Notes under the pieces: generated by a model | The model's database searches: none | What the model was told of the DNA's origin: nothing | Seen by the model: only the letters and a program-made list of their open reading frames with translations | Position numbers and translations under genes: made by a program | NCBI GenBank assembly: GCA_002633005.1 | Contig: NMRA01000612.1 | Location: forward strand, 133,027-197,026 | Source of the DNA: Phoronis australis | Lineage: Eukaryota > Animalia > Phoronida | Length of the DNA: 64,000 bases | Direction: 5' to 3' | In this document: positions 1 to 36,380 of the stretch, piece after piece | Layout of the letters: every line of letters begins with the position of its first letter | Position numbering within the stretch: the stretch's first letter is position 1

Positions 1-1195
1 CTTTTGAGTGGAAAAGTCACAGACAACAGCCAAAAATGTAAGTATTTGAGTGATATTGCAAACAATGAGATCAATATACAGCGAAACCGCATTGATGCAT
101 AAAGTGGTGTGGTATTGGTGAAAAGTTATAAACCGGAAAGCAACGTAGGCACACCTTACCTAAACAGTTTCGGATCGAAAACCTTACCTGTGTTTGAGCA
201 AACGACAACCCTTTTGTTGCAAAAGTATGGAAAAATATACGTTTTCAAACCCAAAAGCCACCGTTATTTTGACCAGCGTTCCGTCAGCGTTCCATATCTT
301 CTGCTCAAAGCCTCGCTTTGAACTTCTTAGTTAACCAGCGCTTCTATAGGGGTCGCCAAGTAAACGGTTTAACTGCACAGTTGTCATCTGTTCTGTACTA
401 GGCCTACATCGAAAGGTTTAAAAATACATAGCTGCTTCCGTCGACGGTTTTGCGTTATGCAACTGTAGCGGTGGTGTTATAGGCAGCGTTGTGTTTTATG
501 TATGTCGTGAATGACCGCAAGTGTCGACCTGACGGATAGATGCTCAGTCGTTTTGAAGTTTGAATATTTAAAAAGCAGGAGTTAAAGGAGATTTGAATTG
601 ATTAAAAATACATTCTTATTTATTGATGTTGTTGAAAATTACAAACAGAGGTTATGAGAAAGAATTGATCAAAAACTATTAAGGAACTTTAAAACTTTTA
701 GAAGAAACTATAGGAGACTTACAAGACGTCACTCATATTTCTAGATTAGACTGGAGTGAGTTTCGAACCCCAGACAGCCCTCCAAAACTGCTTGTGCGCG
801 GCTTTTTATAGACCAAAAGAATGCACGTGTGGATGAGTCCAAAACATAAGTGACGTAATAAAACACCCCTATAGGAAGAGTCAATTAATAAAGTGGCGCG
901 AAACTGTAACTCTATAATTCGCAAAGGGAGGGCGCGCCTGTCACACTCCCCCAACCTCAGATCTAATGTAAATTATTTAACATAGATCAAAATTATACAG
1001 TAGTGACAGTGAGCGACAACTAATTCGTGATAACAAGGTATTCAAGATATTTTAAATGACATCAATAACTCTAGTAATTCACATACACAAAGACCTGAAC
1101 GGTTGGACCATAATAAAATAGAAATAAAATATATGCATAGAAAATGACAACAATTAACTGGGAAACGATTAACAACAACAATAACAACGTAAAAC

Positions 1196-1613
1196 TCAAA
1201 CACCAATAAATGCAACTAGACTTCTTTCCCATTCCAACAATTTGCCTTCGTCCATACCAAACTTCTCTAACTCTACATCTTGAAATGGTGCCCTCTTTCG
1301 ATAGAGCTCACCCATCCTGGCCCACCGCTTTGCCTCCCACACCCTCCGCCAGTGGTTCTTGTTGGCGACCTCTTCTTTCCGATAGGGTTTTGCAGAGTGC
1401 TGCGCCTTTCTCTGGTGGCGACGGGTCTGGTGGGCCCTAGGAGACCGGAAACCGCATGAGCACGTGTACAGTATAATGGTGCGGCAACATGCTGCTTCGT
1501 GGTCGATAGCCTGCGACACCTTCGCGAATTCCTTACTACAATCTCTGCACCTGTATTGATTCGAACTCTTCGCTATGATCTCTCCATACTCCCCAACCTC
1601 TGGATGTAATTCT
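1196..1613 (-). CDS. Small zinc-finger protein coding segment (two Cys/His fingers); start not identified
   Basis: The frame extends upstream of the tracked ORF: ELHPEVGEYGEIIAKSSNQYRCRDCSKEFAKVSQAIDHEAACCRTIILYTCSCGFRSPRAHQTRRHQRKAQH... It contains a YxCxxCxKxFxxxxxxxxHxxxC finger and a second C-x-C...H-x4/5-H finger. A possible acceptor (ttgcag) ends at 1614; there is no in-frame ATG. Confidence 0.45.
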
Positions 1614-2029
1614 CTGCAATGACATGTAAATTAAATTACGGTGACAGAAATCGAGGAGGTTTCTTAATAACTCGACCTCTCCGGGATAGATAGACATCAC
1701 TGCTCACACTGGGGGGCTCAGTGGGAATGCAGCTCTCTAGATTGTTCTCGGTTTCACCACCACATTGGTTATCGGTTTCCTCACTGGACTGGGAAGATCA
1801 TTTGAGTCAAAATTTAAATTGCTAAAATGATTATCTGGTTGTCGCCAGTCTTGGACATATGAGTTAAAACAGGGCTTAAGGTAGTACACGTGAACCGTAA
1901 TCAAGGGTCCGGATCACTCAGCTTGAATTTTATTAAAAAAATCGGTTATAAGGATGCATGTAATGGGAAGTATTAGTTCTTCTTTATCCATGCATTTTGA
2001 TAACAGTCCTTTTCACTAATCCTGTTATA

Positions 2030-3174
2030 TCACGAGGGTTTTTTATTCCATCTTTTATCAAGAGCGTCGCACACACTTTTCCACACGTATCCTTTTTTAC
2101 TCAACATCCTAAAATCGTATTGATACGTCCACTCTTTACGCCATGCATGGAATGAGTTGTATGCGGTCTCGTTTTTCCCAACTACAGTTAAATAGTGAGC
2201 GAGAGACTTGGGAGAGTCAAAATCATCAACATGAATGAAAGAATTCGGAGGTGCTACCTTAACATAGTCCTCTTTGTAGGCTCCCATTACTACTGGCACT
2301 GCATAACTGTCAAACGCTTGCATCCACATTTTTTTTCGCTGATGTAGCCTCGGCAGTTTGAATTCTCGAATGTTAAGAAAAACTTGTAATTTTTATTTTT
2401 TTGACAACCGTGGGCTATGTAGTGCCCCTCACACTTGAGATCACCACATTTACCATAAAAGTCGACGGTCGTGTGCTTTTGAAGTTCTTTAATGTACTTT
2501 ATCCTGCTATTTCGCACGTACTTACAATTGCTAATCATAGCCGCGACTAGTTTTTTGTTTATCCTTAAAAAAACATTTGTTTTTTTGATGGGCTTATCTC
2601 TTCTAATTCTCCAGCCGTATGACACTGGTGCATGCAAATCTTTTCGAAACGTCATGGACCAGTTAAAGGCGATTTTTCCGGTGAAATCCCCCATTTTGTA
2701 CCTGCCCTTATAATCTAAGATTGCAAAATAAGGACTTTCAACGTTGAAGTACAACCATCGTTGCCATGGTGCCCGCTCTTTCGGTAAAGTGTTAAGATAG
2801 GGTAGACGTCTTACCTCAATCACAACTGCGTGGCTCTTGTTCAAATACCTCTTGTCCCTGGTGACTAGGCAATTCCCCGTTTTGTAATTATCGGGAAGAC
2901 CGTTTTCTAAGCTCAGGTACAATGGGTTCCAGTCCATAATAGTAAATTTAGTGGGTTTCACAATCTCAGGCCGCGTAACCTGATTCCTTAACGTGTTTGA
3001 TTCCGCAGTATCACTGTTTGATAAGTTTTCATCAAAGGTGTTGCCGGCAGCATAGCATTTTCCACTGGCAAAGACGTTCAATACGTTCACCTGGGGAGGA
3101 GCATACCAGCATAAGACAAACACTAGCAGCACACCCACCATTAAAACAATGGCAAATTTGGTTCGGAGGTCCAT
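2030..3174 (-). CDS. Intronless alpha-(1,3)-fucosyltransferase (GT10 family, FucT-C-like) with one frameshift at an A8 run (2329-2336)
   Basis: Type II N-terminal TM anchor and stem. GT10 motifs: ERAPWQRWLYFNVESP, FNWSMTFRKD, VAAMISNC..R.KY..EL..VDFYGKCG, YKFFLTFENSNCRGYISEK. The protein continues in another frame with MWMQAFDSYAVPVVMG...PPNSFIHVDDFDSPKSLAHYL. Confidence 0.9.
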
Positions 3175-5229
3175 CGCAGCTGAAACGAAAACATCAGTGT
3201 ATCATTTTAAGGTGATATCAATTTATTGAAGAACACTTAGATTATACAAGGAAAATAATGACAACCCCAGAAATCGCGAAGCATTATATTTGGGTTGTAG
3301 ACAGTACGTAGAGAAAAGTAGTATACACAAAACTGGTCTAAATATTGAAATATTTAGATATGCTATATTCATTCTAATTCACTACTCCCTTTTATTTTAC
3401 GTAGTTTTGAAAAAATACCATGAACAAATTGTTATGAAACAAGCCCATGTAATCGAATATGTTTACTGTTAGATGTATTTCACTTTACTATTGTTGAGAT
3501 AACCGTGCTCTTTACCTCGCTGCCTAAAGATGTGATATCGTCATACAAATAGTTCAAGGTTTTAGCCCTATTTACTGCAAACATCGTAATTTTTGATGTT
3601 ACATTTTGTTTATAAGCCCTATGTTTCATAAATTACAGGTCTTAATGCTTTTGGAGGCCAACTGAGTGGGTAAAATTATCATTACGTGTTGTACACCTGC
3701 GCCACGGGCTGACAGCAAAATTATACAGAAGAATCACAGGCCAAAACCTACATTGGCGATAGTGGTAATCAGAAAAACATTTAGTCACGGGTGAAACCGT
3801 CTTATAATCAGCATAGCAAAACTATCCCTTAAACGTTAATCTTAAGGAATAAAATATTGCAAATCTAACTCAGAAAATTAATACAGTTAATTTATCCAAT
3901 AAAAAAATTTGCGACAAAACCGTAACAGCAAGCTGAACGATTATACAAATTAAACAATACAAAGATACAGTACCTACTGTAGATTTAAATATATCTAAAA
4001 TTCAACTCCGCCTGACGTGAGAATAGAGATGCATCCATAACATGTACAAGAGTAGTATAATAATTGTTTGGTTTTATGAAGATAGATATTGTAATTGGCA
4101 GTATGTCTAATGTTAATGGATCGATAACACAAAATGAAAATGCAACAGATAAATTAAAGATGCTCTTAAAAGAAACACGAATTTGCCTTTTAGTAAGGCT
4201 CGAATTTGGCAAAAATGACTGTCGAGGGCAATTGGGGGTAATGCAGATCTGACAATTGATTTCAACTAATTTTGGGGTGCTGAATCCAAAAAAGTTGTAT
4301 GACGGGTTGGATTTTGCCGGCATATCCCTCAAATCCAAGATGGCCGCCATATGCCATGTAGAAATCGGCAAGTCCCCATAAATACCTTTTAGAATAATTT
4401 TGATACATCAAGCTATAGCTTTTCAGGTGTGATAAAATCGATTCTGATACTATTCTTGTGATTGGAGGTCAAGGGCACTTGAAAAGGTCAATGTCAAGGT
4501 CACATTGGAAATACAGTGATGTCAAATATTTCAGGGCATCTTTACACATAAATTCAGACTGGCGTTAGGTATTGAATTTGTATGGCAAAATGGATTTTTC
4601 AGCTTACGTAATCTATAAATCTAAGATGGCCGCCAGCCGCCGTTGTGGAATTGTAATGCCTAAGGAAGTATTGCTAACACCAATTGCATATTTCAACAGG
4701 GAATGACATAACCAGCAATTTGGGCAACACTCTTGCAATATTGAAAATACCCTAAGGCATAGATTGAATACAGTAAATAAATCTTCAAATTGGAATAAAA
4801 ACGGTTGCTAAAACTGCCGTTTCTCTTTATTAAAAACTGAAAATGAACCAAATGCTCAAGGTTTACTAATTTAATGTTTGATGCCTGCACACCATATGAA
4901 ATGTAAAAACAAGAACGTCTTTAAAGGTCAGTGGCGAATTGACTCTGGTCTAAATGGAATTTTGTTTGACAGCCATACTGTGACTGATGAGCTGGTTTTG
5001 CTTGAGGGTCTTCTCCCGACAACACGTTGAACTTTACTGCTCGGAGAATGGCTAGGATCTCAAAGCGGTAGGGCAGGAAGCTTATTGCCACACTCGCGAG
5101 CTTTAGCTAATTTTGACTTCGGACTGAATGTTTGCAACAGACCCACTTATTTTGAGCAACCCTTTGTGTCCATTTTTCACTACACCAGGAGATACATCCT
5201 CAGTCGTCATGTTCCCTGGTACAACTTTG

Positions 5230-5292
5230 GTCAATATTGAGAAATCCAAAAGTCAAATTAGAATGTGTGGTGATTATAAAGTTACTGTGACG
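5230..5292 (+). mobile_element. Tiny Gypsy-type reverse transcriptase remnant
   Basis: Peptide KSQIRMCGDYKVTV matches the Gypsy RT motif IRxCGDYKVTVN; nothing flanking is recognisable. Confidence 0.5.
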
Positions 5293-5649
5293 AGCAACAG
5301 AACAAAATTCTTACTACTGGTGATTTGTTTAACACATTATCATGTGCTTTAGGTTTCAGTAAGGTTATCATGTGTGAGTCTGATATTTGATGTCGGAAAT
5401 ACACAATGATTGACGACTTTTGAACTTCTATCCGATTGAAGAACGAAGACGGTCATGAAATTCACGGACACATTCAGTTTAGTTTTGTGTTGTAGTTACA
5501 TTGTATGAATGTGTGATTGCATGTGTCAATTACTGGTGTATTGTTACAATTAGTTTTGCAAATGTCATATTATTTTACTTCAGCTTGTATTGTCAAGAAG
5601 ATAAGGGTTTGGGGTTAGATAATGGTTAAATTATACCGTATTACCTTAA

Positions 5650-8150
5650 GAGTGAAGTACTGCTCACAGCAGGCAAAATGCCCAGAGGGGTCATAAACCC
5701 AATGTCACCGATTTCAACCATATTATGCATTTTAGTTACCTTTGGGATGATAAGCAAAAGAGGAAAGTCCAATCTCATTTTACCATGTCTAAGGGGGAGA
5801 AATCAGGGAGCCTCTGTTTTAGGGGTCATGCAATGAACTCGCCGAAAATGCCTTATTTGCACTGCTTAATAAATATACCGGCGAACCAAATCATTATTTG
5901 TTTGTAACTTATAAATAAAGCAAGTCTTTGGCTTCACAAGGGTGTTAAACAATACTCATTAACTCTGCCGCTAAGTTAAAAATTTCTGGCATAAAATATA
6001 GAGGGGTCAGAGGTTAACAAGGCATTGCTATTTTGCCAGACTTTGAGCCCGTATATCTCAGCTGGCACAACACTGATCAAAACCAGACTTTTACACAAGA
6101 CGTTTGTATCTTATTGCTGTTGATTAGTACAATAAAATTTTCTGGCGCTGAGCATTTTCCTATAGGAATTGCAAGATTGTGACAACCACCTGAGTAGAAA
6201 TTAGCTTCAATACCGATACCTGTTTGGAACATTACAACACCAGTAAAGTGCATAGTTTTGATTCAAAAGTTGGATTATTAATATTTAGTTTAGAGTCATT
6301 AAGTCAGGTGAAATTGTTTAAGGTATTTTTCCTTTTTATTTAAAATTCCGCGTTTTTCGTGAACCCAGTGTCCAACAACAGGTGTCACTTTAGTGGTGGC
6401 AAAATGGCTGATCCTGACTTGCTGTGTTAACTGCTAGTATGATGGAGTGTGATGAAGTGTGTGGGACTTCAAAAGAATGTCCTCTGCACATGTGTGAAAT
6501 CTTGATGCGGCATAAAGTGAGTACCAATCCACCGCACCTACAGACTGCGGCAACTGAATTTGGCGAGAGTCGGACAATTTACAAATTCTTGTTCACCGGA
6601 CCCGTGTCACGCCTGTGTGACTGCGTCCAAGGCAAGGGCAAGACACCAGGCTCATCGTGGAATTCTGTGGAAACCAAGTAGACTATGCAAACACCCATTT
6701 CATTAGCAGTAGCTCGCGTGCCAAGCCTGAAGTGGGGATGGTATTTCAATGTCGAAAGTCAACTTACTTCCACAGGAACTCAACGATGAACAGTTTCAAT
6801 GCATGTGTTCTTTCCTGTTGGACCTGGTGAGTACTACTACTACTTTGTCTGAATTTGAAGTTATCACGGTAGCATTGTGGCGGTAATAGTCAGTTTTGTG
6901 GATACTTGATTCGAGAACCAGTTAGCACCACTAGAAACAAGTTACAGATGTTATTCCAATGCAGTACCCTGCAGTGCAAGTTACTCATTTCAGAAATTTC
7001 ACAAACTGTGTGACCATGCATGTACCACAAAATATAACAACAGCACTTGTTTTTGAACAGTATAGACAGAGCTTTTTAGTGTGCCCACTGGTGTAATTTT
7101 GTAGTCCTATGCCTGCATCACTGTAAACAGCTGATGAACAGTCTTGTGTTCCTAACGGCAAATGATATACCTGTGCTGTCGCCGTTGTTGGAGTCTAGGC
7201 TAGCGTAGAGCTATTCAGTCCACTTACTAGTACCGTCTTGTGTTAATTGTAAGTTCAGTCCGAGATTATGTGCATCTAGTGACCTGTAGTTGTTGCAAGC
7301 GGAAAATGCAATATCTCTTTGACTTTAACTTTTCAACAACCATTATTGTTGTTATGCGTCTTCTTTTTAGTTCATTACAAGAAGTATTTTTCCTATTCAT
7401 ATATTGATGAATGCTGTAGTCACAGCATTATAAATTCCAATTTTAACTGACAACCTGCATGCCGCAATTTCTTTTCACTTCAGCTGTCAGTGAATTATGT
7501 AGTTCTGGAAATCATAGCATGTCGTTATGTTTTATGAGTACCAATATGTCGACATTTATTGTCTTGATATGATATTCTTATGATGTCCAAAGGAATCCGG
7601 CAAAAATGAATCAAATACCCACAGTGTTTTTTTCTTGTTGTACTTAGGGTCATTTTACATATTACACTCCACGGGTCAAAAGAATTATCTCATCTAAAAT
7701 CATTGGATCACTCAGCAGCAGTCACACCTGTGTAGTGGCTGGGCTCTGCGAAGTTCTGCAAAAAGTGTATAATTTGAGACTGTTACAACCTGCCTGTCAT
7801 TTTTCAGAAAGTAGAACAACAAAGCAGACCCGCAAGAACTGCACAGGCGATGAAGACGGATGAGCAGTTTCGGGAGGAAGGCTGGCTGACACTACAACAG
7901 GATAAAAGTTTCGTTTCACGCTTGGCCGTCTTGAACCGCGTTGGAAAATGGTCAAATGAGGGAGATAATTAACTTGACTGTCAGTGATGTCCAGAAATAC
8001 TCCGGATTTCATCTTTGTCCGAACTTTGTACAATCTGTTGGCTTGTCTGAGTGATTTAACCAGTTGTAATTGATGTGATATTGTAGAAACTGAGGTAAAT
8101 GCAAAATGCAATATAGCAACACTTGTTGTGATTTTGTCAGTAAAATTTAG
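5650..8150 (+). mobile_element. Degenerate intron-containing DNA transposon, Sola3-like; 5' end present, interrupted by the Ngaro/DIRS fragment
   Basis: Begins TTAA|GAGTGAAGTAC at 5646-5660; a TTAA target with a 5'-GAG terminus is what I recall for Sola3. Frameshifted peptides: HRGILWKPSRLCKHPFH (~6650-6705), then C-terminal GWALRSS (7737), KADPQELH (~7821) and IKSFVSR (~7902). No matching right TIR was found. Confidence 0.55.
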
Positions 8151-13147: not shown

Positions 13148-16100
13148 TCAGGTTACGAAGTTTCCCTCGATCTCCACACCATGCGCGGGCGTAATTATGT
13201 GAATAACGAGATAGGGTCCTCTCCAACCCAACCCTAATTTTTGATTAACAGTGGGTGGATACCAACGAAAGACCAAATCACCCTCTTTAAACGCTCTGAG
13301 TTTAAGTTTAGAATCGTAGTATGACTTTTGTCTGGACGCACTTGCTTTTAGTTTCTCACGAGTTACTCGTGTGTAAACATCAATGTGGACTTTAACCACT
13401 CTACGTAAGCAGTCAAACACGGTACGTCTGTCTCATGTCGGGAATCACTGGGGTTTTCCAGCATGACTTCAATGGGATGTGACACCTCGTGTCCAAACAA
13501 CATTCGAAAGGGAGAACACCCTATACTGTCGTGCACCGTGGAACGGTACGCCAGCATAACGTAAGGCAAGTGATCGTCCCAGTCTTGGCGGTTTTCGTCG
13601 ACAAACATGGCAAGCATTTGCTGGACAGTTCGGTTAAATCTCTCGTCCATGTCGTCAGACTGTGGTCTGTATGGCGTAGTTCTGGTTTTCGAGATTTCGA
13701 GCAAGGAACAGAGTTGAGACATAAGTTCACTCTCAAATTCTCTACCGTGATCGGTACATGTATGTATGAATTTGGAAATACCAAATCGACAAATAACTTC
13801 TTTAACGAGTGTGTCAGCAACAATGTAGGCCGTATGTTCAGGTAGACTGAAAGCTTCTGTCCACTTGCTGAAGTAATCGCCAACTACCATGATGTACTTG
13901 TTCCCGTTTTCTGTCTCAGGTAATGGCCCCAAGATATCGATGGCAACTCGTTGAAAGGGAGCACCCACTCTGCTTTGCTTTAGAGGTGCCCGTCCATGCC
14001 CTAGTGCAGGCTTGCGGCGTGCGCACATGTCGCATTTGCGACACCACCATGTGACATCACCAAGTAGACCTGGCCAATAGTAGCAGGACCTCACAGCTCT
14101 CAGGGTTCTCTCTCTTCCGAGGTGACCAGCTGTCCTGTTATTATGCAAGGCTTTCAATATCTCAGAACGCAACGTCTGAGGTACGACCAGCACACAACGT
14201 TCTCCGTTCCCACAATCATCGATCCATCTGCGGTATAGTAAACTGTCGCGTATTTCAAGTAAATTCGATTTGCTGAATAGCCTCTTTGCCTGATTACTAT
14301 ATTCAGCGATGACATCACGGCTAGGTTTGTCAGGGTATTCTCTGGGCCAACAACACAGTCTTGCTCCTTCAGCCTCGCAACTCGTCAGGATTCCACCTTG
14401 GCAACCACATATTCGGTTCTCAATTACTTTGACGTGTCGTCCGTCACTTGTTGGCGGGCCTCAAGGCAGATACCACACTGGAGCCGGCACACTGGGTGCA
14501 ATCGCCCCGTTGACATCTCCTTCGTGGTTTGCTTGACAGCCCGTCGGCGTTTCCATGTAGGGAGCCTTTAGGATGCTCATTGTCAAAATCATACGCATCT
14601 AGAGTCGCTATCCAGCGTGCAAAAATATCGGTCGTTTGTTTAAATTTTCTGAGCCAGCGTAGAAAACTGTGGTCAGTTCTGACAAGGAATTTCCTGCCCC
14701 ACAAGTAATGGCGGAAACGCTTCACAAAAGTGACAAGAGCCAAGAGCTCTCTGTATGTTGTACAGTATCTCTCTTGGGTTTTGGATAGAGCGTTACTGGC
14801 ATATGCAATTACATTTTCTTCACCGTTTTGGACCTGTGACAGAACGCCTGAGGTACCATAGGCAGACGCGTCAGTGTCTAGAATGAACTGACCATTACCG
14901 TTGGGGAAGGCCAAAACTGGATGTTCCGTAAGGGCATTCTTGAGACTGTCAAAGGCATGTTCACAAGCACTGTCCCACACAAATCTGTGTCAGTGCAGTG
15001 AGCGGGGCGGCGATACTAGAAAAGTCGAGGATGAAGCGCCGATAGTACGAAGCTAGACCAAGAAAGCTCCTGACGTCTGAAACGTTCGTGGGGCGTGGCC
15101 AGCAATGCACAGCTTCAACTTTATCTGGATCGCAAGAGACACCGAAAGTCGAGACCTCGTGACCAAGGAACTTGACTTTCCGTTGAAAAAGACATTTGGA
15201 GGGTTTCAATCGTAAGTCAGCTTCTCGTAGCCGAAGAAAAACTTCTCTCAGATTTGCTAAAGCAGAATTAAATGCATTTGCGTAGCAAATAACATCGTCG
15301 AGATACACTCGACATTTCTGCCATTTAAGACCTTGAAGGACATTTTCCATGAGCCTCTCAAAAGTGGCACCAGCATTGCATAAACCAAATGGCATAAATT
15401 GATAGTGTTGCCCTCTGTCAATCACAATCGCCGTTTTGGGTTTGTCTTCTTCTGACATGGGGACTTGCCAGTACCCACTTGCTAAATCTAGCGTGGAGAA
15501 GTACGACATATTGCCAAGTTGGTCAAGACAGGTGTCTATGCGTGGCAGGGAAAAACATCTTTTCTCGTAGCCGAGTTGACTTTTCTGAAGTCAATGCAGA
15601 ACCGCCAATCAGACGGATTTTTACTAGGTTCGTTAAGTCGGGCCGTGTCTTTGTCTTTTCTGACCAAGACAATTGGTGATGCCCATGGACTGTTAGTGGG
15701 CTCAATCACGCCTGATTTTAACATTCGGTCAATTTCAGCGTCTGCTATTTCACGTTGCATTACAGGTCTAGGGGATTGCTTTATGGGAGCATGGTTACCC
15801 GTGTCAATTTTGTGAAAAGCTTTAGCCGTGCGTCCTAACTCGCCGTTAGGGCCAGCAAAGACGTCTGAGAATTCGACTATTAGGGCTTTAACTTGAGCGG
15901 CTTGATCGGCATTAAGACCTTTGATCGCGCTCTTAAACATGGGTTCTAAATGGCTGGTCAGTGAACCGTTTTCCAACCCTGAAGGTTTGTTGCGGTCACT
16001 AGTCACTACACCACTCATACATGTACACTTACTGGACAGTGGACCGTTTTCCAACCCTGAAGGTTTGCTGCGGTCACTTGTCACCACACCACCCGTACAT

Positions 16101-17606
16101 TTACGGTTCGGACGTAGAGATATCTGTACCCCCTTGATAAAAACGAAGTCCTTTGGGGAAAATTAAACGTTTGACAACTATTTCGTTTCATGAAATCGAG
16201 ACCCAAAATAATTGGTATGTCGATATCAACGACAAGAAAATTGTGTGAAAATTCCAAATTTTCCACACTAAACGAGATTTCGAGGTACCCGAAATCTTTA
16301 ATCAAGTTTCCACTCGCATCATAAAGCGGAACAGTATTTGGACACAGTTCACGGGTATTCAACCCGATCCCTTCAAATACAGTGACGGACATCAGCGTAC
16401 GAGCTGAACCCCTGTTATACAAGGCATCAAATGCTTCACCAAAAATATTTACAGTAAGAAAAAGACAGTTAACATTATTTACATCGAAAGCGGCTGAATC
16501 TCCGGTCTCAGACCCAACCGTTTTCAGTTTAAATTTGGGTTATGCCCATTTGCTGCTTGGGATCTCGAGTCGGCCTGACGCTCGGCATCCGCTGAGCGGT
16601 TCCTTGAGCGACAGTCGCGACTAATGTGTCCACTCAGGCCACATGAATGACAAATTACAGGTCTTCTCTGTTCTCTCTGAACTCTCAACTGATTTTTCAG
16701 ATCATCAACTTCTTTGCGTAATTCGCCATATTGACGCGCAATTATGCTAGAATCCTTCTTATTTGCCGCGTTCACATTGCATATGCGTTCAGGGTCATAA
16801 GGTTTACGATTGTATGGTTGTGTGCTTTCAAAAGCTTCAAACTCTACTGCCAGTGCAATCGCAGCGTCAGTAGATATTGGATGGTTAAATTGGACATGCC
16901 TCTGTAAGGCTTTGTCCCCAAGGATTTAAACTCGCACTTGTATGCGGCGATTCTCTCCGGGGGATTAAATCTCTGTGACAGTGTTTCTCTTAATAGATGA
17001 TAATTGGATAGTTGACTAGGAGTTAGTTCAGACATCACTCGCAAGGCGGCGCCTCTCAGGCAAGTCGAGAATTGTATGGCTATTTCGTCTTCAGTCCACC
17101 CATTCCATCTACTAATTATTTAAATTGCCAAATAAAATCCGTCCAGTCACATGTCTTTCCATCAAATGAAGAAAGTTGTTTTTCTTTTCTTTTTACAACT
17201 AAATTATTTGTTTGTGGTACTGAATGCACCGAGCCTTCATCAAATAGTGCGGCCTCATATCTGGCGTACGAATTCGTACGCAGCTCACGTGCAGGACTCG
17301 CGGGCAAACTATTTTCATTGTTCAACGAGCTGTCTAGAATCGGGTTGGTAGTTGAGACTGCGGTCATTATTCGATTTTTTTCAGGCATTGGACTTTGATT
17401 TGGTGATGAAGTTGATATCACTGGCCTTTCACCTTGAAGGTTTTCAGCACAGTTTTCGTCAACTTTATGTGGAGTGAAGAAGTTAGTCGCCAAACTCCAA
17501 AAACGGGACATCGTTTAGTCTGACTTGTTGATCACAGATTAATTCAAGGAGAAGAGTTTATTCACAGACTGATTAATTGTTGAGTCGATTTTGGGCTGCT
17601 TGGAAT
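13148..17606 (-). mobile_element. Gypsy/Ty3 LTR retrotransposon internal region, multiply frameshifted (gag-pro-RT-RH-INT); LTRs not identified
   Basis: gag 16524-17511 with zinc knuckle CHSCGLSGHISRDC; protease remnant IILGLDF (~16200); RT 14961-15800 (SPWASPIVLV, RFCIDFRKVN, TLDLASGYWQV, YLDD); RNase H (FILDTDAS, TDH, NADGLS); integrase (HH-CC, RVAIDILGP, TDHGREFES, ERFNRT) and a WRGPY module. Confidence 0.95.
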
Positions 17607-17610
17607 TTAA

Positions 17611-20600
17611 AGTCCAGGTATCACACGTTGTTAACCCTTATTACATTGTTAGAGGATGTTATAACGATCCAAGAAGTACCTACCCCATAACTAATAGACG
17701 ATCCGTACTCGAAAAAAGTTTAAATGAACGTGCCACTCACGATTCGCACCCGAAGAACAACCGCCATTTTGAACTTGCCGCGAACCCGGAAGTACAATTC
17801 ATTCAAGAACCCAGGCTAAGAAAACGCCGTCAGTGTGAGTGCCTGTTACCAGCCTGCAAACGGGGATAAAATAATGGACAGCGCGCCTTAATTTTAATAA
17901 AATAAAAATACGGACCACTTTATTGAATTTGCCCGGCCGAAGAAATGTGGCGAATAAATTTTGTCAGAAATTATTTTGCCGGCCTCAGGACCGCAGCCTA
18001 TCGGACCCGGTGCGGATCGAAACAAGACCTACGCGAACGATAAAGTCATACGGTTGCAAGCTGCTTTGTCGAAGTAAAATGTTCAAATCATAAATGCCGT
18101 ATATATTCAAAGGTAGTTTCAGACACTTGGATAAAATTACGGGTTGGTTAATCCTGTGTCACACTGCCGCGGCAGCCCTTAGCTAGCCTCAGTGCCAGCT
18201 ACCAGTATGAAGACTACCGTCACAATACAGCTAGCTTGTTAGTAGGCCCATACAGCTTTGGGCCAAGGCTACCCTTAAGCCTACCTGGTCGCTGGCCACA
18301 GCGCTCGCTCAAACGAGGTTTATTTAGAACTTGGGTACTTCTGGCGAACTGTGCAAAGTTGTTGTTTTTCGACAGAGATTTTCCCAAACTTTGTATGAGA
18401 GCACCAAGCTTAAAAAATGGGGGGCTGGAATTTTTCGGAATGTCTTTCTTTTACTATAAGGTTCACTGGGTGTGTTCAGAGTTAGGAACTTCCTGTCTTC
18501 TTGTAGAATATGTCGTCTCGTTTTCTACTTTTTTGGAGTTCGTGCTTCTCTGACTGAGGCAGACCTTTTTCCATTTCTCCAAATAGGGGCTCGTTCGAGC
18601 ACATAAGTATGACAAGTCCAATACAAAATGTTATCATTTTTTATTCATTAAAGTCCTTCTCTCACGCGTTGATAACCCTTATTACATGGTTAGAGGATGT
18701 TATAAGGATCCAAGAAGTACTTAACCTATAACTAATACACAATCCGTACTCGAAAAAGGTTTAAATGAACGCGCCACTCACGATTCGCACCCGAAGAACC
18801 ACCGCCATTTTGAGCTTGCCGCGAACCCGGAAGTACAATTCATTCAGGAACTCAGGCCGAGAAAACGCCGTCAGTGCGACTGGAGCAGTGCCTGTACTGT
18901 TACCAGCCAGCGAACGGGGATAAAATAATCGACAGCGCGCCTTAATTTTAATGAAATCAAACTACGGACAATTTTATCGAATTTGCTGAAGAAATGTGGC
19001 GAAAAAATNCAAAACATAACCTCGTTTTAGACCTCAATTTCAGTTAACTGGACAATGCAATCATAGTTATCATGTTTCTTCAGGAACCTCGTTCATCCGA
19101 GGGGAAAGGTGCCAGTGCCTACTGAGAGGCGATTTTTTCGCCGAGTGAGGGCGGGAACAATCTACCTCCCGATCACCATCAATAGCACCCCCGCCCTGTT
19201 GCAAGCTCTCATAGGCTCTGTCTCAATTTAAAGTAGCCTTTTGTGCTTTTAAAAATTGTCACCTGTGTGGTTACAAATGACGTGAACTCAGAGAGATTTT
19301 TCACTAGGGGAATTTTTATACCTCGTGGGGGGAATTTCGCTTGATATTTCAATATTTTTGAGAGGGGAATAGGACCGATATTGGGCCCCAAATTTGAGGG
19401 ATTGAGGGCCCTGTTCTTTTTGGAAAGAAGAATTATAATGTTTCAACCCGTAGCAGGGGCGGATCCAGGATTTTGAGTTAGGGGGGGCAGGGCACAGGAA
19501 TAAGCAGCATTTCGGCAGATGCGCGCGCCCAGCCTAAAATCTGGAGATGCAGGGGTCTTGAATTCTTGGGTTTGCGGACCTGTTGACTAAAAAAATGGTA
19601 AACGGGGTTCATTCAGCGCCTATGCGTTGTTTATTCACCCCCCAAGACCCCCTGGTTGCGCTCGTGTGCTAGTCAGCAATTCGCACCCGAACTCAAAAAT
19701 GGGATCTGATACAATTTTAGGGGGGACACCTCACTCCCCCAAATCCGTAGTCATGAAAATACAGCCTGGCATTCTCCGGTCGTTACTACATGATGCTTGA
19801 CAACTGACCAAGATGCGCGACAACATATGATCTACTCATTTGAAAACATTTATTTTACACGGACATATTTTGCTTCGTCGCGGCGTATGGCAACGACCCA
19901 ACGCTTCCGAATCTCACGTCTTTAGAGATTGTAAAGCAAACAGTTGCGTGTCCGTATTTTTTCTAGCCGTTCGCGGAACAACACGGACGGAAACACAGAC
20001 TCCTATGCCGATAAGCTAACAGAGCTATCGTAGCGAGCCTCGTTTTGGAACGCGCCTCCTATCGGCGTGAATAGGGTCTATACAGCTTTGCGCCAAGGCT
20101 ACCCTTAGGCCTAACTGGTCGCTGGCCACAGCGCTCGCACAAACGAGGTTTATTTAGAACATGGGTACTTCTGTCGAACTGTGCAAAGTTGTTGGCTTTC
20201 AATAGAGATTTTCCCAGAATTTTTATGAGCGCACCAAGCCTAAAAGAAGGGGGGGGGCTGGAATTTTTGGGAATGTCTACCTTTTCCTATAAGATTCAGT
20301 GGGTATGTTCAGAGCTATGAATTGCAGACTCTTAATTTTGGTACTTCCTGTCTTCTAGTGAAATATTGTCTCATTTTCTACTTTTTTCGGAATTCGTGCT
20401 TCTGTGACTGAGGCAGACCTTTTTCCAGTTCTCCAAAAAGGAGGCTCGTTCGAGCACATAAGTATGACAAGGTCAATACAACATGTTAAAAATTAAATAA
20501 TTAAAAATTATTTCAACTATGTTTTTAGCTTAGTGTAAGATCACCTGTATGGGAAATTTACAGTAAAATAGTTCGATTATATCTTATATTTTTGCACAAA

Positions 20601-23052
20601 AAACACGAAATTTGAACAAAGTTTCTTTTTGTAGCAATGTTTGTAGAATGTATCAACGTTAAATCTTCACAAATTTCAAAGTAGCCGATTGAACATGTCC
20701 TTCAGTTCAGCAAAAGTTGCCATGTTGTCGGTGCCGCCAGAAATGAGACGGGAATTGTGAGCACATTTATCACTTAATGAGTAACAACTGCGAGGCTGAA
20801 ATTTGGTGAACACTGTTAAATCGTGCAGAATAGTAAGTAAAGATATGTCTTACTAAATTCCACCGTAATTTGTTGGCGAAAACAATTTACACAGTTTTAA
20901 ACTCGTAACTTATCCCGCTGTCCTCCAATATGGCCGACGCGATCCAAACAAATTAAGTGACACAAATTTCGCCACAAAACTTGCAATAACTTTACACTGC
21001 TTGCCCCGATTTTCACTTTTTCGATTTTTACTGAGTAGAATGCACTACCTTTCCGATGATAGCAAAGTACTTTTTCAAAACGAGAAAAAAATAAAACCGA
21101 AAAAAATTGGTTCGACCCACATTGGTTCCTACGTTCGACCGGCCTACATAAGGAACTAAACGCCAATGCTATATTTTAACATACTAAGCACGCGTAACAT
21201 TCCAAAAAAATCAACGACCACTAACTACAAACTATAAATACACTACATATGCAAACGAATCACGAGATATTACTAATAAAACAAAATAATGAAGAGTTTT
21301 CGAGCAAGCCATAGCACATTCAGTTGCAAGGAAAAAATGGCGGCGTTCGGGACAAGTTCCTGAACTGATGAGCCGGAAATGTGGGTACGGAAATAACCGA
21401 TGACAGCCGGTAATTATACGCTCACAGAGAAGGGTCAAATACTGTTAAAATCACTTTTGGCAAGAAAGGCGAAAAGAATATAAAGAAAGGGTGTCGAAAA
21501 TAAGATTTTATGTAGTAAGTATTTTCGGATGCTGGAACCACATGGGCAGTTTGAGAGAAGGACTTTAAGCCAAAATGATTCAACCTTTTAACATAATAAG
21601 TAACTTAAAATGCACAATACTTTACAACATTTAGCATTACAAACACTATTCAACAGCAAAAGTTTCCACGATATGAAAGTGGACATACATGCAACTATTA
21701 CCATGGTGACCGAATAGTGTTTCCTTACACCAGAATTTGACAAGCATGATTAAAAAATATGAAGTTGCAAGGAATAAGAATTGGAGGCTTGAAGCTTCAC
21801 AATACAACATAGCTTATTTCTCAAATTAAGATTAATCATATTGTTGACTTGATAACCTGAATTAAGAAGCAATAAGTTACAAAACATGACTTGAAAGCAA
21901 TTGAGACTTAAAATTTAGAAAAATATTAATCATTTTGTGACACCTAATCAAGCCTTGAACAGCAGTTGATAGTCAAACAAAAAACCATTTCAAAAGTACT
22001 TCAACTATTTCTTAGCTTAGTGTGAGATCGCCGGAATGGGAAATTCACAGTAAAAAAATTCGAATTATCTTGTATTTTTTTCACAAAAAACATGGAAATT
22101 GAACAAAGTTCCTTTTTTGTAGCGAAATTTGTCAAAATGTATCAACGATCAGACATCATAAATTACAAAGTAACAGGTTGAACATGCCTTCCAGTTCAGC
22201 AAAAGTCGTCATGTTGTCGGTGCCGCCAGAAATGAGACGAGAATTGTGAGCACATTTATCACTTAATGAGTAACAACTGCGAGGCTGAAATTTGGTGAAC
22301 ACTGTTGAATCGTGCAGAATAGTAAGTAAAGATATGTCTCACGAAATTTCACCGTAAATTGTTGGAGAAAATAATTTACACAAAGTTTTAAACTCGTAAC
22401 TTATACCGCTGTTCTCCAATATGGCCGACGCGACCCAAAGAAAGTGACCCAAATTTCGCCACAAAAATTGCAATAACTTAACAGTGCTTGCCCCGATTTT
22501 GATACTTTTTGATCTTTACTGAGTAAGATGCACTACCTTTCCGATGATAACAAAGCACTCTTTCAAAACGAGAAAAAGTCAAAAACGTAAGAAATTGGTT
22601 CGATTCATATTGGTTCCTAGGTTCGACCGCCCTACGTAAGGAACTATGCACCAATGCTATTTTAACATAATAATTACGCGTAACATTCCAAAAAAATTCA
22701 ACGACCACTAACTACAAACTATAAATACACTACACACACAAACAAATCACGAGATATTACTAATAAAACAAAATAATGAAGACTTTTCGAGCAAGCCATA
22801 ACACATTCAGTTACAAGGAAAAAATGGCGGCGTTCAGGATAAGTTCCTGAACGGATGAGCCGGAAATTTGGGTACGGAAATAACCGATGACATCTGGTAA
22901 TTATACGCTCACAGAGAAGGGACAAATACTGTTAAGAATCGCTTTCGGCAAGAAAGGCGTAAAGAATATAAAGAAAGGGTTTCGAAAATAAGATATTATG
23001 TAGTAAGTATTTTCGGATACTGGAACCACATGGGCAGTTTGAGAGCAGGACT
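17611..23052 (+). mobile_element. Non-autonomous TTAA-targeting DNA transposon (Kolobok-like), copy A, split by nested copy B
   Basis: Left end TTAA|AGTCC at 17607-17615; right end TGAGAGCAGGACT|TTAA at 23040-23056. Segments 17611-18647 and 21569-23052 are collinear with copy B. An RR terminus with a TTAA target is the Kolobok pattern. Confidence 0.75.
18652..21564 (+). mobile_element. Same family, copy B, inserted into copy A
   Basis: Perfect 13-bp TIRs AGTCCTTCTCTCA / TGAGAGAAGGACT flanked by TTAA (18648-51 and 21565-68). 18660-19008 matches 17620-17960, 20080-20490 matches 18250-18630, and 20510-21564 matches 22000-23052. Confidence 0.85.
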
Positions 23053-23056
23053 TTAA

Positions 23057-23726
23057 AGTCCTTATTGCAAACTGCCCATGTGGTTCCAGTATCCGAAAAT
23101 ACTTACTACATAAATTCTTATTTTCGACACCCTTTCTTTATATTCTTTTCGCCTTTCTTGCCAAAAGCGATTTTTTAACAGTATTTGACCCTTCTCTCTG
23201 AGCGTATGATTACCGGTTGTCATCGGTTATTTCCGTACCCACATTTCCGGCTCATCAGTTCAGGAACTTGTCCTGAACGCTGCCATTTTTCCTTGTAACT
23301 GAATGTGCTATGGCTTGCTCGAAAAGTCTTCATTATTTTGTTTTATTAGTAATATAGCGTGATTCGTGTGCATATGTAGTGTATTTATAATTTGTAGTTA
23401 GTGGTCGTTGATTTTTTTGGAATGTTACGCGTACTTAGTATGTTAAAATAGCATTGGTGTTTAGTTCCTTACGTAGGCGGGTCGAACCTAGGAACCAATA
23501 TGGGTCGAACCAATTTTTTTCGGTTTTATTTTTTTCCTCGTTTTGAAAAAGTACTTTGCTATCATCGGAAAGGTAGTTCAATCTACTCAGTAAAAATCGA
23601 AAAAGAATCAAAATCGGGGCAAAGTTATTTCAAGTTTTGTGGCGAAATTTGGGTCACTTTGTTTGGATCGCGTCGGCCATATTGGAGGACAGCGGGATGA
23701 GTTACGAGTTTAAAACTTTGTGTAAA
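23057..23726 (-). mobile_element. Same family, truncated copy C in inverted orientation sharing the TTAA of copy A
   Basis: Near-exact reverse complement of 22375-23052; junction AGGACT-TTAA-AGTCCT. Confidence 0.85.
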
Positions 23727-24121
23727 CATAGATTATAGACAACAGATTCGCAACTCCGGCCTATTCTTACGAGCTGAGTTGAACTCTCCTGACCTATCTG
23801 CTGCAGTTTCCGGTCAGTGTAATTTGACGAGAAATACTTGCATCTACTTTACTGTCCAAAACATCGAAAAAAACATTAATTTATATTAATTTCGGTATTG
23901 AAACGCTTTTCAAAGTCTTTCAATAGTAGAAGTGTTGGTATTGTGTGTACTTTTGGCAATGCTACTGGTAATTAATTTCAAAATTCAAACTTCGGTTCCG
24001 ACCCTTTATGTCGTCTGCTTGCCCAATAGCAGCATAGTTATCGGACAGTTTTTGATTTACGGTTCACATAGGCCTACTGAGAAAACTACGAAAGCGTGTT
24101 TATAAATCAACATTCTCAAGT

Positions 24122-24210
24122 GAGCAGTTCTTCTGGGAAGTGTTGAGTGGCCCTTAAAAGGACCGTTGGTTGTAGATATAGCGTGAAATGGTTCTTAAAA
24201 GAACCGTTGA
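24122..24210 (-). terminator. Two tandem histone-mRNA-type 3' stem-loops plus a downstream purine-rich (HDE-like) element
   Basis: Minus strand: TCAAC-GGTTCT-TTTA-AGAACC-ATTTC (24190-24205) and CCAAC-GGTCCT-TTTA-AGGGCC-ACTCA (24149-24164), followed by CAGAAGAACTG (~24125-24135). Both fit the GGYYYT-TTTN-ARRRCC consensus with CAAC 5' flanks. Confidence 0.85.
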
Positions 24211-24215
24211 ATAAT

Positions 24216-24542
24216 TCAACATAAATCACACAGTATACCATGCTCACTCAAGTACTGAAGGTCCTCTTCATTCAAGTTTTCATCTGGGAAGGTGGGATGA
24301 AAACAGAGGAGATGACAATATCGATGACAGTTGTAACACCTTAGATAGAAATTACCGTTCACCAACGTTGTCACGAACCCTGCATCGTTCAGTTCTTGTT
24401 CCTGTATTCACAAATAATCCTGAACTGTAGGAAAAAAAACTTATGACAAACAACACAACACAAAAATAAAATTTCGAAAATCATCGCCTTCGTACGATTC
24501 CGTGTTGCTGTCACCAGACTGATGTTCTTCTCCAACGTCCAT
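24216..24542 (-). pseudogene. Intronless ~109-aa protein with an acidic N-terminus and a C4HC3 (PHD/RING-variant) finger; disrupted in this copy
   Basis: ATG at 24542. Reconstructed: MDVGEEHQSGDSNTESYEGDDFRNFI-LCCVVCHKFF-PTVQDYL*IQEQELNDAGFVTTLVNGNFYLRCYNCHRYCHLLCFHPTFPDENLNEEDLQYLSEHGILCDLC*. The last 63 codons (24219-24407) are fully open. The N-terminal CVVC needs two compensating 1-nt indels in T-runs, and there is one in-frame TGA at 24408-10. Confidence 0.7.
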
Positions 24543-24849
24543 CGTAAAAAATCGACGTTGCAAGTGATGGAAACTTGTCTACGCTCTCGTCCTTTGTTTC
24601 TAACCTTTAACCCATTTTTTAAAAAAGGGGTTTACTGTTTTTGTCTCATGTTGATAGTGCATAATCTATGGTTTTACAATGTATTAATCGTGTTAAATGC
24701 ATATATATATGAACTGGTCTCATTGAGGTGCACACCAAATAAATTAACTATAACAAATTACATGACGTGGTGCTTACTCGAATGAGTTTCATTTTAGCGG
24801 CTATTTCCAATTGTGTAGGTGAAGTAAATTAACAAANAAAGAATCAAAT

Positions 24850-26720
24850 CTTTCCTCTAGCTCCGCCTCCTGTCCTACAAGACTGCCTTTCACATTCTGA
24901 TGACGCAATACATCATGCATCCTGCAATATCATTCAGCCGCAATACAGTGAGATCAGCTTAATGTCATACCCTTGCTTTGACATAAGTTATGATAACAAG
25001 GTGGTTTTCTACTTGGTGGTGATCGTAACCACTTAGTCTGAGAGTAAGACAGCTAAACAGAAAACAACTGGTTCTTAATCTTGACGTCAAGTTCTGCTAA
25101 TTCAAATGAATTGTAAATGATTTACCGTAGGTTGTTTTTTAGATAGAAAACCAAAGGTTCAAAGGGTGAGAATCTATTTTGGAGATTTTTGAATGGAGAA
25201 ATTCTAAAATATGACAATAAATCATGGCATTATTATTTTACATGGGCTTAATTAGAAATGATTTGTTTTGTGACATTTCATGGCAACAACTAGGACATTC
25301 TATTACCTGACATGACATTAAGTGGGCTGCACTGTATTACTAACCAACACCAATAGTACTCACAGACTTGATGTAATTGGTAGAGTCATCAAGTCGCTAT
25401 TGCCAAGTCACAGACAGCTAAATTTCCTGACTGGTTACAAGTGCAATTAAGATCTCAAAAAAATCTTGAAGGCTCAAGTCTTTTCAGGTATGAAAGAATT
25501 TCTTGGATTGTGACTAGAGTATGTCTGCATGACTGCATGTTAGTGGTCTAACTCAATGCTGATACTTTTAACAATAAGGTTTGCCAATAATAACTCTGTT
25601 GCAGATTTACACTAATTCAGCAGATACTTCAACACTCGTGATTTCCTAAAACTGCTAGGAAGTGGTGACGTAATATCACCATTTCTAAAATCTATTGATC
25701 TATATCTACACAAGCCCGGCACAAAACTAAATAGAATAAAGGCTAATACAGTAAATAGATCAACAGATTTTAGAAATAACGTTCCTTCAACACTCATTTT
25801 TAAAACTTTTTTCTTTTCATAGCACATGGTGGGAAGATCACAAATATTAGAGGCAGGCTTACATCTGAGTCAGTCTCCTCCCTTCAATATTCATCAACTC
25901 TCTAAAAGATGGGAAGCTAGAGTAGTAATCCCAGTCATTGCCCGCACATGGTAAATCATTGGAACTTCTCACAGCACCAATGACTGCTTGCAGCGCCCTC
26001 TGTAAATAATACCACTGGCAGTCAGAGCATACCTCATAAGACACGTTTACCCATGATAGATTGATAGTTGAAAAATGAAGAATTTTACAGACATAAATAT
26101 CAATTTCCAGGTGATAGCACGACAATAGTGTTTCAATCATAAACCAATCGGCAAATGCCCAGGAACAGGGTGAAATAAGAGAAACCGCCACTGATTATTA
26201 TAGCTATTAAACTAAAGCTATGACACAGGTTAACTGACATCAAGGGGCAATAGTGGAGTTGCACCCGTGCCATCTTGAAAATGACTCAGAATGTTGCATT
26301 GTGGGTCTGGGAGTATCATTCGGTAAACAAGCAGGCTAAAAAACGTGGAATTCGTTAGGGGCACTAATTTACTTTCTGCAGTATCTTGAGTGCATGCTCA
26401 GATGTGTGTGCATGGTAACTCTAACAGGTTACCAAACAAGATGTCAGGTCATACTGGCAACCTCAAGTCATATGATTCAATAAGTTGCATGCTATAGACA
26501 TGCACAGAGATGCAATCACAACAGAAATAACTCAGTTCATGATTTTGTTGACAGAACGAAGTCCATTTGGAAATTTGATAGTAGAAGTACTTCTTCGAGT
26601 TGGAAGCATTATACTTATTGTGAAAAATCACTTTGCTCCATTTCGAACCCAGTACTCTTATTTCAAAGTCTGGCGTCCTCACCAGTCAACCAAAGAGCGA
26701 TTACCCATACATGAGTGATA
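24850..26720 (+). pseudogene. Heavily degenerate coding-like region of unknown family, divergent from the finger gene
   Basis: Stretches of protein-like frames broken by stops and frameshifts (e.g. IGRVIKSLLPSHRQLNF, SRYFNTRDFLKLLGSGDVISPFLKSIDLYLHKPGTK), with possible splice sites. No motif recognised with confidence. Confidence 0.3.
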
Positions 26721-35965: not shown

Positions 35966-36380
35966 ATGAAAGCGCTCCGAGGAGCGACACTTGGCGAAAT
36001 TAACAGAAAAGATGACGATAGGGATGACGACGAAGAGGACGACTATGACGACGATGGTGGCGATGATGAACAATTCAAGTAATGATAACATTCACAAGAC
36101 GAACGTAGAGGCCAGACATCAGGAAATATAGGGTACAGTCTTGAACGACACTTGGCGAAAATAACTGAAAAGACGACGGAGATAATGACGAAGAGGACGA
36201 ATATGACGAAGATGGTGGCGATGATGAACAATTCAAGTAATGATAACATTCACAAGACGAACGTAAAGGCCAGACATCAGTCTTGAACGACACTTGGCGA
36301 AATTAACTGAAAAAACGACGACGGAGATGATGACGAAGATAACGAATATGATGACGATGGTGATGATGCTGAACAACATC
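35966..36380 (+). repeat. Three tandem ~140-160-bp units rich in GAY/GAR triplets
   Basis: Anchor cgacacttggcgaaa at ~35986, ~36147 and ~36288, each followed by an Asp/Glu-codon run and gatgatgaacaa or a variant. Confidence 0.85.

Follow-up and report, generated by a model that had tools for sequence, protein, structure and literature searches.

A decayed PHD-finger gene followed by tandem histone-type stem-loops in a dispersed repeat of Phoronis australis

Replication-dependent histone mRNAs are, according to the available part of PMC4604434, the only cellular mRNAs that end in a stem-loop instead of a poly(A) tail. A 64,000-nucleotide stretch of Phoronis australis DNA (hereafter the window) raises the question of whether a gene of another kind may be provided with such an end. 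On the minus strand of this stretch, a short frame for a putative PHD-finger protein is followed by two hairpins of the histone type and a purine-rich element. What the frame encodes, what carries it and whether the signals behind it are likely to be used are discussed below.

The frame is intronless and occupies positions 24216-24542 (minus strand), from an ATG at 24542 to a TGA at 24218-24216 (109 codons including the stop). On the basis of its sequence, a profile match and an alignment with the database protein P0002, it is a decayed frame for a PHD-finger protein of approximately 105 aa with an acidic N-terminus. An initial annotation of this DNA had placed an intronless frame of about 109 codons with an acidic N-terminus at this position and had described the copy as decayed, and the breaks can be located in the frame. 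One in-frame TGA lies at 24408-24410 (minus strand), and T runs at 24438-24464 (minus strand) have gained 4 and 5 nt in two insertions, 9 nt net. These insertions, near 24460 and 24438, put the first cysteine pair out of frame, and because of the T-run shift the unshifted frame carries an additional TAA at 24443-24441. Most copies are without these breaks. The T-run letters are missing from other reads and contigs (in DNA run X4, the summed depth without them is 438.5 out of 692 and 438.5 out of 476), and the TGA site is open in other copies (46 of 59 RNA reads in run X8 and 57% of the depth in DNA run X4). P0002 is near-identical to the window protein (83% over 24542-24291) and is open at all three breaks. 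Intact relatives, which had been recommended as an object of search, do exist. The sense strand of 23727-24836 contains no AATAAA or ATTAAA poly(A) hexamer.

The C-terminal piece of the frame gives a weak match to Pfam PHD (E-value: 0.0062). A first protein search returned seven representatives, and a wider search returned 18 proteins among 700 candidates. The family consists of stand-alone proteins, mostly 107-110 aa in length, with an acidic N-terminus and eight ligands that are kept throughout (alignment A3). One named member is KAH3730070.1 of Dreissena polymorpha; P0004 has five near-identical members, each on a separate megabase contig. In the same alignment, the finger core is C4HC3 with the spacing C-x(2-4)-C-x4-H-x2-C. 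RINGv (RING-CH) fingers have the core spacing C-x-C-x7-H-x2-C. A RINGv E3 ligase was rejected because the core spacing of the family is PHD-type, and no RING family is found among the profile matches. PHD_NSD matches 11 of 13 family members, with P0004 above its cut-off. When a model of P0004 (pLDDT 76.8) was used in a fold search, 40 of the 50 best matches named a PHD finger and none named a RING. The matches are low but consistent (best match: Z 4.3, rmsd 2.7 over 52 residues), and the best Foldseek E-value is 0.12. Judged by its ligand spacing and the modelled fold, the window finger is PHD-type and not RINGv. The initial annotation had offered a PHD/RINGv finger and a ubiquitin-ligase-type product; the first half of that description stands, while the RINGv half and the ligase are not borne out. 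From its fold, the finger product is predicted to bind a histone tail.

Alignment A3 gave no matches to solved structures by sequence, and the clusters that an atlas search matched to P0004 were all generic PHD ones, with values under 0.9. NCBIfam and plasmid searches gave no match. In prokaryote genomes, one of ten matches passed (L003, E-value: 1e-4) and was rejected as an antisense frame of a bacterial gene. Within the family, the window protein groups with P0002 and P0003 in a long-branched clade (support 100/99; branch of 1.88 changes per column).

Stem-loop 1 (24190-24205, minus strand) begins 10 nt after the stop codon. The core of stem-loop 2 (24164-24149; 24144-24169 with its 5-nt flanks, minus strand) begins 25 nt past stem-loop 1, and both are where the initial annotation had put them. 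The stems are 6 bp long with G-C as the second pair, and the loops are of 4 nt with U in the third position. The hairpins differ at two of six pairs with pairing kept in both, a comparison of two sequences that has no statistical weight. In the Rfam Histone3 check that had been suggested, both hairpins matched RF00032 (stem-loop 1: 23.6 bits, E-value: 5.7e-4; stem-loop 2: 28.6 bits, E-value: 7.7e-6). Neither reaches the gathering score of 34, which is why a whole-window scan at that threshold returns nothing. The strict histone stem-loop pattern occurs at two places in the 64-kb window, both behind the finger frame. When the window was simulated 60 times with a second-order Markov model, the pattern matched 0.033 times on average and never twice.

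The 26-nt signal of hairpin 2 lies 46 nt after the stop, with a predicted cut after 24144. A purine-rich HDE-like element is located at 24122-24134 (minus strand), and its purine run AGAAGAA (24134-24128) is 10-16 nt past this cut, in conformity with the HDE-to-cut spacing of histone pre-mRNAs given in the available part of PMC5435866. In histone mRNAs the signal lies 25-60 nt after the stop, as far as the available text of 10.64898/2026.10.14.759114 goes; hairpin 2 is therefore inside this range, and hairpin 1, whose 26-nt signal is only 5 nt from the stop, is outside it. Hairpin 1 also has no purine-rich element behind it, and the HDE-like element of the initial annotation is accordingly retained for hairpin 2 only. 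No histone family matched any of the 37 stop-free frames of at least 25 aa at 23600-24900 or the 31 long frames searched across the window (31 of 48, plus the finger piece; gap-filled and overlapping frames omitted), in agreement with the earlier statement that there is no histone coding sequence.

The arrangement is like the 3' end of metazoan replication-dependent histone mRNAs (RF00032 and HDE; SLBP, U7 snRNP, CPSF73) in its stem, loop and 5-nt flanks, in its short intronless frame, in the placing of its purine element past the predicted cut and, by the parts of 10.64898/2026.10.14.759114 and PMC5435866 available, in the distance of hairpin 2 from the stop. It differs in that the frame is non-histone, that there are two hairpins, that they are located in a dispersed repeat and that no processed end is seen in RNA reads. 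The feature resembles a histone 3' end; the gene itself is not a histone gene. Such a resemblance could be passive. An element may have captured histone-gene 3' fragments, or captured one and duplicated it, such that only the PHD frame is selected and the hairpins have no role. The placing of hairpin 1, with its signal so near the stop and no HDE, is consistent with this explanation. The cassette as a whole argues against it: it adjoins the stop on the strand of the gene, its HDE is correctly spaced and no remnant of a histone coding sequence accompanies it. We consider passive capture unlikely.

The frame and hairpins are part of a copy of a high-copy dispersed repeat (23727-24836, strand undefined), which was recognized from read depth, variable flanks and 245 DNA contigs. 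There is read depth over 23727-24836 and none in the intron next to it, and reads past 24836 carry other sequence. The right end of the repeat is lost in a single-N assembly gap at 24837; other copies run past this point (20 reads). The 245 contigs (DNA run X4) align to 24060-24600 with a summed depth of about 400-7400, which is not equivalent to copy number and to which true histone loci may add at the hairpins. Single divergent contigs over the repeat show a depth of 4-16 in the same run. These values suggest that there are hundreds of copies of the repeat.

One terminus of the element lies at 23727-23768 (plus strand), where unlike RNA flanks, loose ends and a cut into an older repeat coincide. 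Unlike flanks precede 23727 in 164, 139 and 128 reads of three RNA runs (agreement 0.44-0.52), and loose read ends lie behind 23756-23768. The approximately 40 nt at 23727-23768 are common to an abundant transcribed sequence that diverges afterwards, and which we infer to be the opposite terminal repeat or a sister family; as a sign of terminal inverted repeats, this common stretch is no more than suggestive. The terminus interrupts an arm of the older repeat exactly at 23726/23727. This older repeat is a 1.35-kb palindrome (22375-23726; arms 89% alike, no spacer) whose right arm is cut by the element, and a direct copy of palindrome sequence is found 1487 nt upstream at 20501-21568. A form of the element with an internal 652-nt deletion joins 23812 to 24465 (seven reads).

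An inverted copy of the terminal 10-mer 23727-23736 was identified in the sequence at 24661-24670 (minus strand). Since a contig of depth 54 continues through this copy, it was rejected as the second terminus for most copies. Neither a transposase nor a second terminus nor a target-site duplication can be seen in the 64-kb window, the second end falling in the gap. Copies of the repeat are dispersed, and their sharp terminus adjoins unlike flanks, as expected of a cut-and-paste element; the repeat is likely a non-autonomous or partial DNA transposon. The terminus, the 245 contigs and the deletion form together uphold the earlier proposal of a mobile element.

Beyond the gap, the minus strand carries exons of EXOSC10/Rrp6 at about 31091-31008 (by eye), 25999-25863 (PMC2NT, E-value: 1.2e-5) and 24920-24838, with a splice joint 24920-25862 in RNA reads. 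Nesting of the element in an EXOSC10 intron was rejected as unproven because the N at 24837 truncates exon 3 and inspection of 111 minus-strand frames by eye revealed no exon after it. The window also contains a frameshifted Gypsy-like retrotransposon (13363-19008, minus strand; zinc knuckle, protease, RT, RNase H and integrase) in which 17607-17959 and 18648-19008 form a pair of 360-nt direct repeats, an intronless fucosyltransferase (GT10) gene split over two frames (2033-3201, minus strand) and three tandem units of approximately 150 nt with many acidic codons (35982-36376).

Variation among the copies bears on whether the hairpins belong to the gene. A depth-34 contig covers 24107-24402, comprising both hairpins and the finger, with nine differences and no gap. 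Because this contig spans both, the finger gene and hairpin cassette are one unit; the co-occurrence of stem-loop and finger gene that the initial annotation had proposed for study is thus seen on one collapsed high-depth contig. The sole stem difference of the contig makes its pair Watson-Crick. Across copies, hairpin 2 has a Watson-Crick (G-C-type) pair in place of its single G-U pair in 5796 of 5901 summed DNA depth (98%; 26 contigs) and in 50 of 57 RNA reads. Among the 40 listed of 107 variant rows, no other site varies in a stem, an observation that is suggestive and does not amount to a test.

Of these 40 rows, 30 were scorable, with seven outside the frame, two in the T-run break and one in the start codon left out; removal of five variants with less than 5% DNA support left 25. 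Synonymous changes make up 12 of the 25 DNA-supported variants, compared with 19-27% expected (p 0.001-0.02), and 17 of the 25 fall at third codon positions (p 4e-4), with the limitation that variants are not independent events. None of the 25 affects a Cys or His ligand. With the same limitation, the synonymous excess supports the selection on the C4HC3 frame that had been anticipated.

One subfamily, recognized by loose ends in X9, X4 and X6, diverges downstream of 24097 and retains the whole hairpin cassette with its purine-rich element, and four X4 contigs retain the frame and hairpin 1 and diverge before hairpin 2. The start codon differs in one read group (15 of 33 antisense reads, 0 of 19 sense reads). 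In organism B, near-identical pieces are present at a depth of about 2 only and may be trace DNA. Divergent contigs without hairpin 2 are compatible with passive capture, and a recent burst would leave any cargo intact. The stems are nevertheless the same in subfamilies that have diverged from one another at many sites of the frame and beyond 24097, and this argues against hairpins that have no role.

Transcripts ending at the hairpins had also been predicted. The raw RNA runs X8, X9 and X10 are stranded, as judged by the EXOSC10 exons, and 18-19% of each was read. A separate run search listed no holder of the sequence that is recorded as RNA, a result that speaks neither for nor against transcription. 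Both strands of the element are transcribed. In X9, the sense depth ranges from 32 to 45 over the two hairpins and from 40 to 45 past them with no pile-up of ends, and X8 and X10 show no lasting drop in depth at the hairpins. No RNA 3' end was found at the hairpins in any of the three raw runs, whose library selection is unspecified and whose reads come from many copies; the near-zero intron depth hints that the libraries were poly(A)-selected. A pile-up of eight molecules at 24175 in X8 was rejected: it is on the opposite strand, is off the predicted cut and is absent in X9.

A>G and T>C differences are in excess in RNA (33 and 20 places, compared with 8 and 5 in DNA from different individuals), and this excess is strand-specific over 23727-24836. 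It is likely the product of A-to-I (hyper-)editing of repeat duplexes. There is also a run of reads in which every A of the plus strand of hairpin 2 is read as G. RNA from both strands, together with the A>G and T>C excess, is as expected for repeat read-through. The read-through is evidence against constitutive processing of most copies and is not decisive. The predicted ends were not recovered in X8, X9 or X10, a result that counts in part against the initial annotation and in favour of passive capture.

The same data bear on a regulatory alternative. The hairpins could be SLBP-bound attenuators or decay signals that limit element transcripts, or SLBP decoys that perturb the histone supply of the host. 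A tandem pair is more than one cleavage needs, hairpin 1 is without an HDE and most element RNA is read-through from both strands, all of which would suit such a role. A plain mRNA end is the simpler explanation for the purifying selection on the upstream frame and the ordinary histone geometry of hairpin 2, and attenuation or decoy activity appears improbable.

Relatives with surrounding DNA were found in a metagenome scan, in which 55 pattern matches yielded two loci, L001 and L002. The two are 87% alike over 1208 nt, and each has a large frame that begins 2 nt after the finger stop. The resulting layout, a finger gene and then a transposase-like frame of approximately 760 codons (L001: 171-2465, L002: 1441-2440), is apparently undescribed. 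The large frame of L001 has one internal stop; that of L002 is decayed, and an element of 980 nt, whose inverted ends measure 28 nt, has split it at 2443-3423. The L001 large frame matches PF25273 (DUF7869; E-value: 2.4e-6) and also matches eukaryotic clusters with PF25273 at 0.94-0.97. Its single-sequence model is of low confidence (pLDDT 41) and has no clear fold match, a search of solved structures by sequence gave one chance row, and none of 19 matches in viral data is a relative. No trace of this frame is present in the window.

Neither L001 nor L002 has a hairpin behind its finger gene. Because the finger adjoins a transposase-like frame and lacks a hairpin at these loci, the finger gene is, from sequence, probably an accessory gene of transposons throughout its family, and the hairpins were probably gained in one lineage. 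The hairpin is dispensable for the family at large, since these distant relatives are without it. The expectation of the initial annotation that homologous finger genes would have the stem-loop thus fails in both distant relatives, which weakens that reading in part; relatives that manage without a hairpin are also what passive capture would predict.

The motifs of the large frames resemble those of Sola1 transposases, which makes L001 and L002 candidate Sola1-type DDD transposons. Sola1 is present in bivalves according to the available part of PMC10294476, and one member of the finger family is from Dreissena polymorpha (for the classification of DNA transposons, see the parts available of PMC5751038 and PMC4455052). 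The window copy differs from Sola1 in having no transposase. AcademHP elements are DNA transposons with a PHD finger. In the available part of PMC2836005, PHD fingers are fused to Ginger1 (Ginger1-9_HM) and Mutator transposases. The window element is like these in that a mobile element carries a PHD finger, which presumably reads chromatin; unlike them, its finger is an unfused, stand-alone gene of approximately 105-110 aa with a helical insertion, and in the window lineage this gene ends in a histone-type signal.

With its right end in the gap and no transposase in the window, the repeat could be carried by something other than a DDE transposon, such as a tyrosine-recombinase/Crypton-like or Polinton-like element, or it could be a multigene family of the host with the make-up of histone genes. 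The long branch of the window clade means that its carrier may differ from that of L001. The virus-like element of the initial annotation is not supported: viral contigs contain no relative of the finger among eight pattern matches and no DNA matches, and no viral fold matched with an E-value of 0.001 or less. No fused longer form of the finger protein was found among 7993 longer candidates, which is weak evidence against another element. A host gene family is opposed by the sharp terminus at many unlike flanks and by the deletion forms. A carrier of these other kinds is accordingly given little credence.

The explanation that we favour, and regard on balance as the probable one, is that the window holds a decayed copy of a likely non-autonomous or partial DNA transposon, and that intact sources likely use the stem-loop pair behind the PHD gene as an SLBP/U7-type, poly(A)-free end. 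The steps would be as follows. The lineage gained the hairpin cassette where relatives have the transposase gene, as we infer from L001 and L002. Intact source copies would make a short intronless RNA. SLBP is predicted to bind hairpin 2 and U7 to pair with the purine-rich element, and these two signals would direct cleavage after 24144 to give a poly(A)-free message. Hairpin 1, being without an HDE, would be an extra or spare SLBP site. The PHD product would bind chromatin at the histone H3 tail and may help the transposase of the element, and the histone-type end would confine this product to S phase or oocytes. Cut-and-paste elements gain copies during replication. The advantage of the arrangement may be expression that is timed to this phase. 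Most genomic copies would be passive, visible in RNA only as read-through.

A broader claim can be made more tentatively: a transposon lineage may have rewired a chromatin-reader gene into the histone mRNA pathway, giving an S-phase- or oocyte-timed, poly(A)-free PHD message by way of SLBP and U7. We find this plausible, with doubt slightly the heavier. A message rewired in this manner would mean that the helper of the element is present while chromatin replicates. Intact copies likely use the histone mRNA pathway, although the RNA reads continue through the hairpins.

In the literature searched, the coverage of which excluded Repbase and the supplements of bioRxiv preprints, such a 3' end was not found described for any transposon or non-histone gene. 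PHD fingers in DNA transposons are already known; a stand-alone PHD gene with a histone-type end is unreported in that literature. The finger family contains a built-in comparison, as relatives without the hairpin exist. If the proposed explanation is true, a pathway regarded as exclusive to histones would have natural substrates of another kind in the messages of this element. If a non-histone gene that is under selection and present in many copies has the complete signal, selfish DNA is able to time its expression by the histone pathway, and poly(A) RNA-seq would miss messages of this type.
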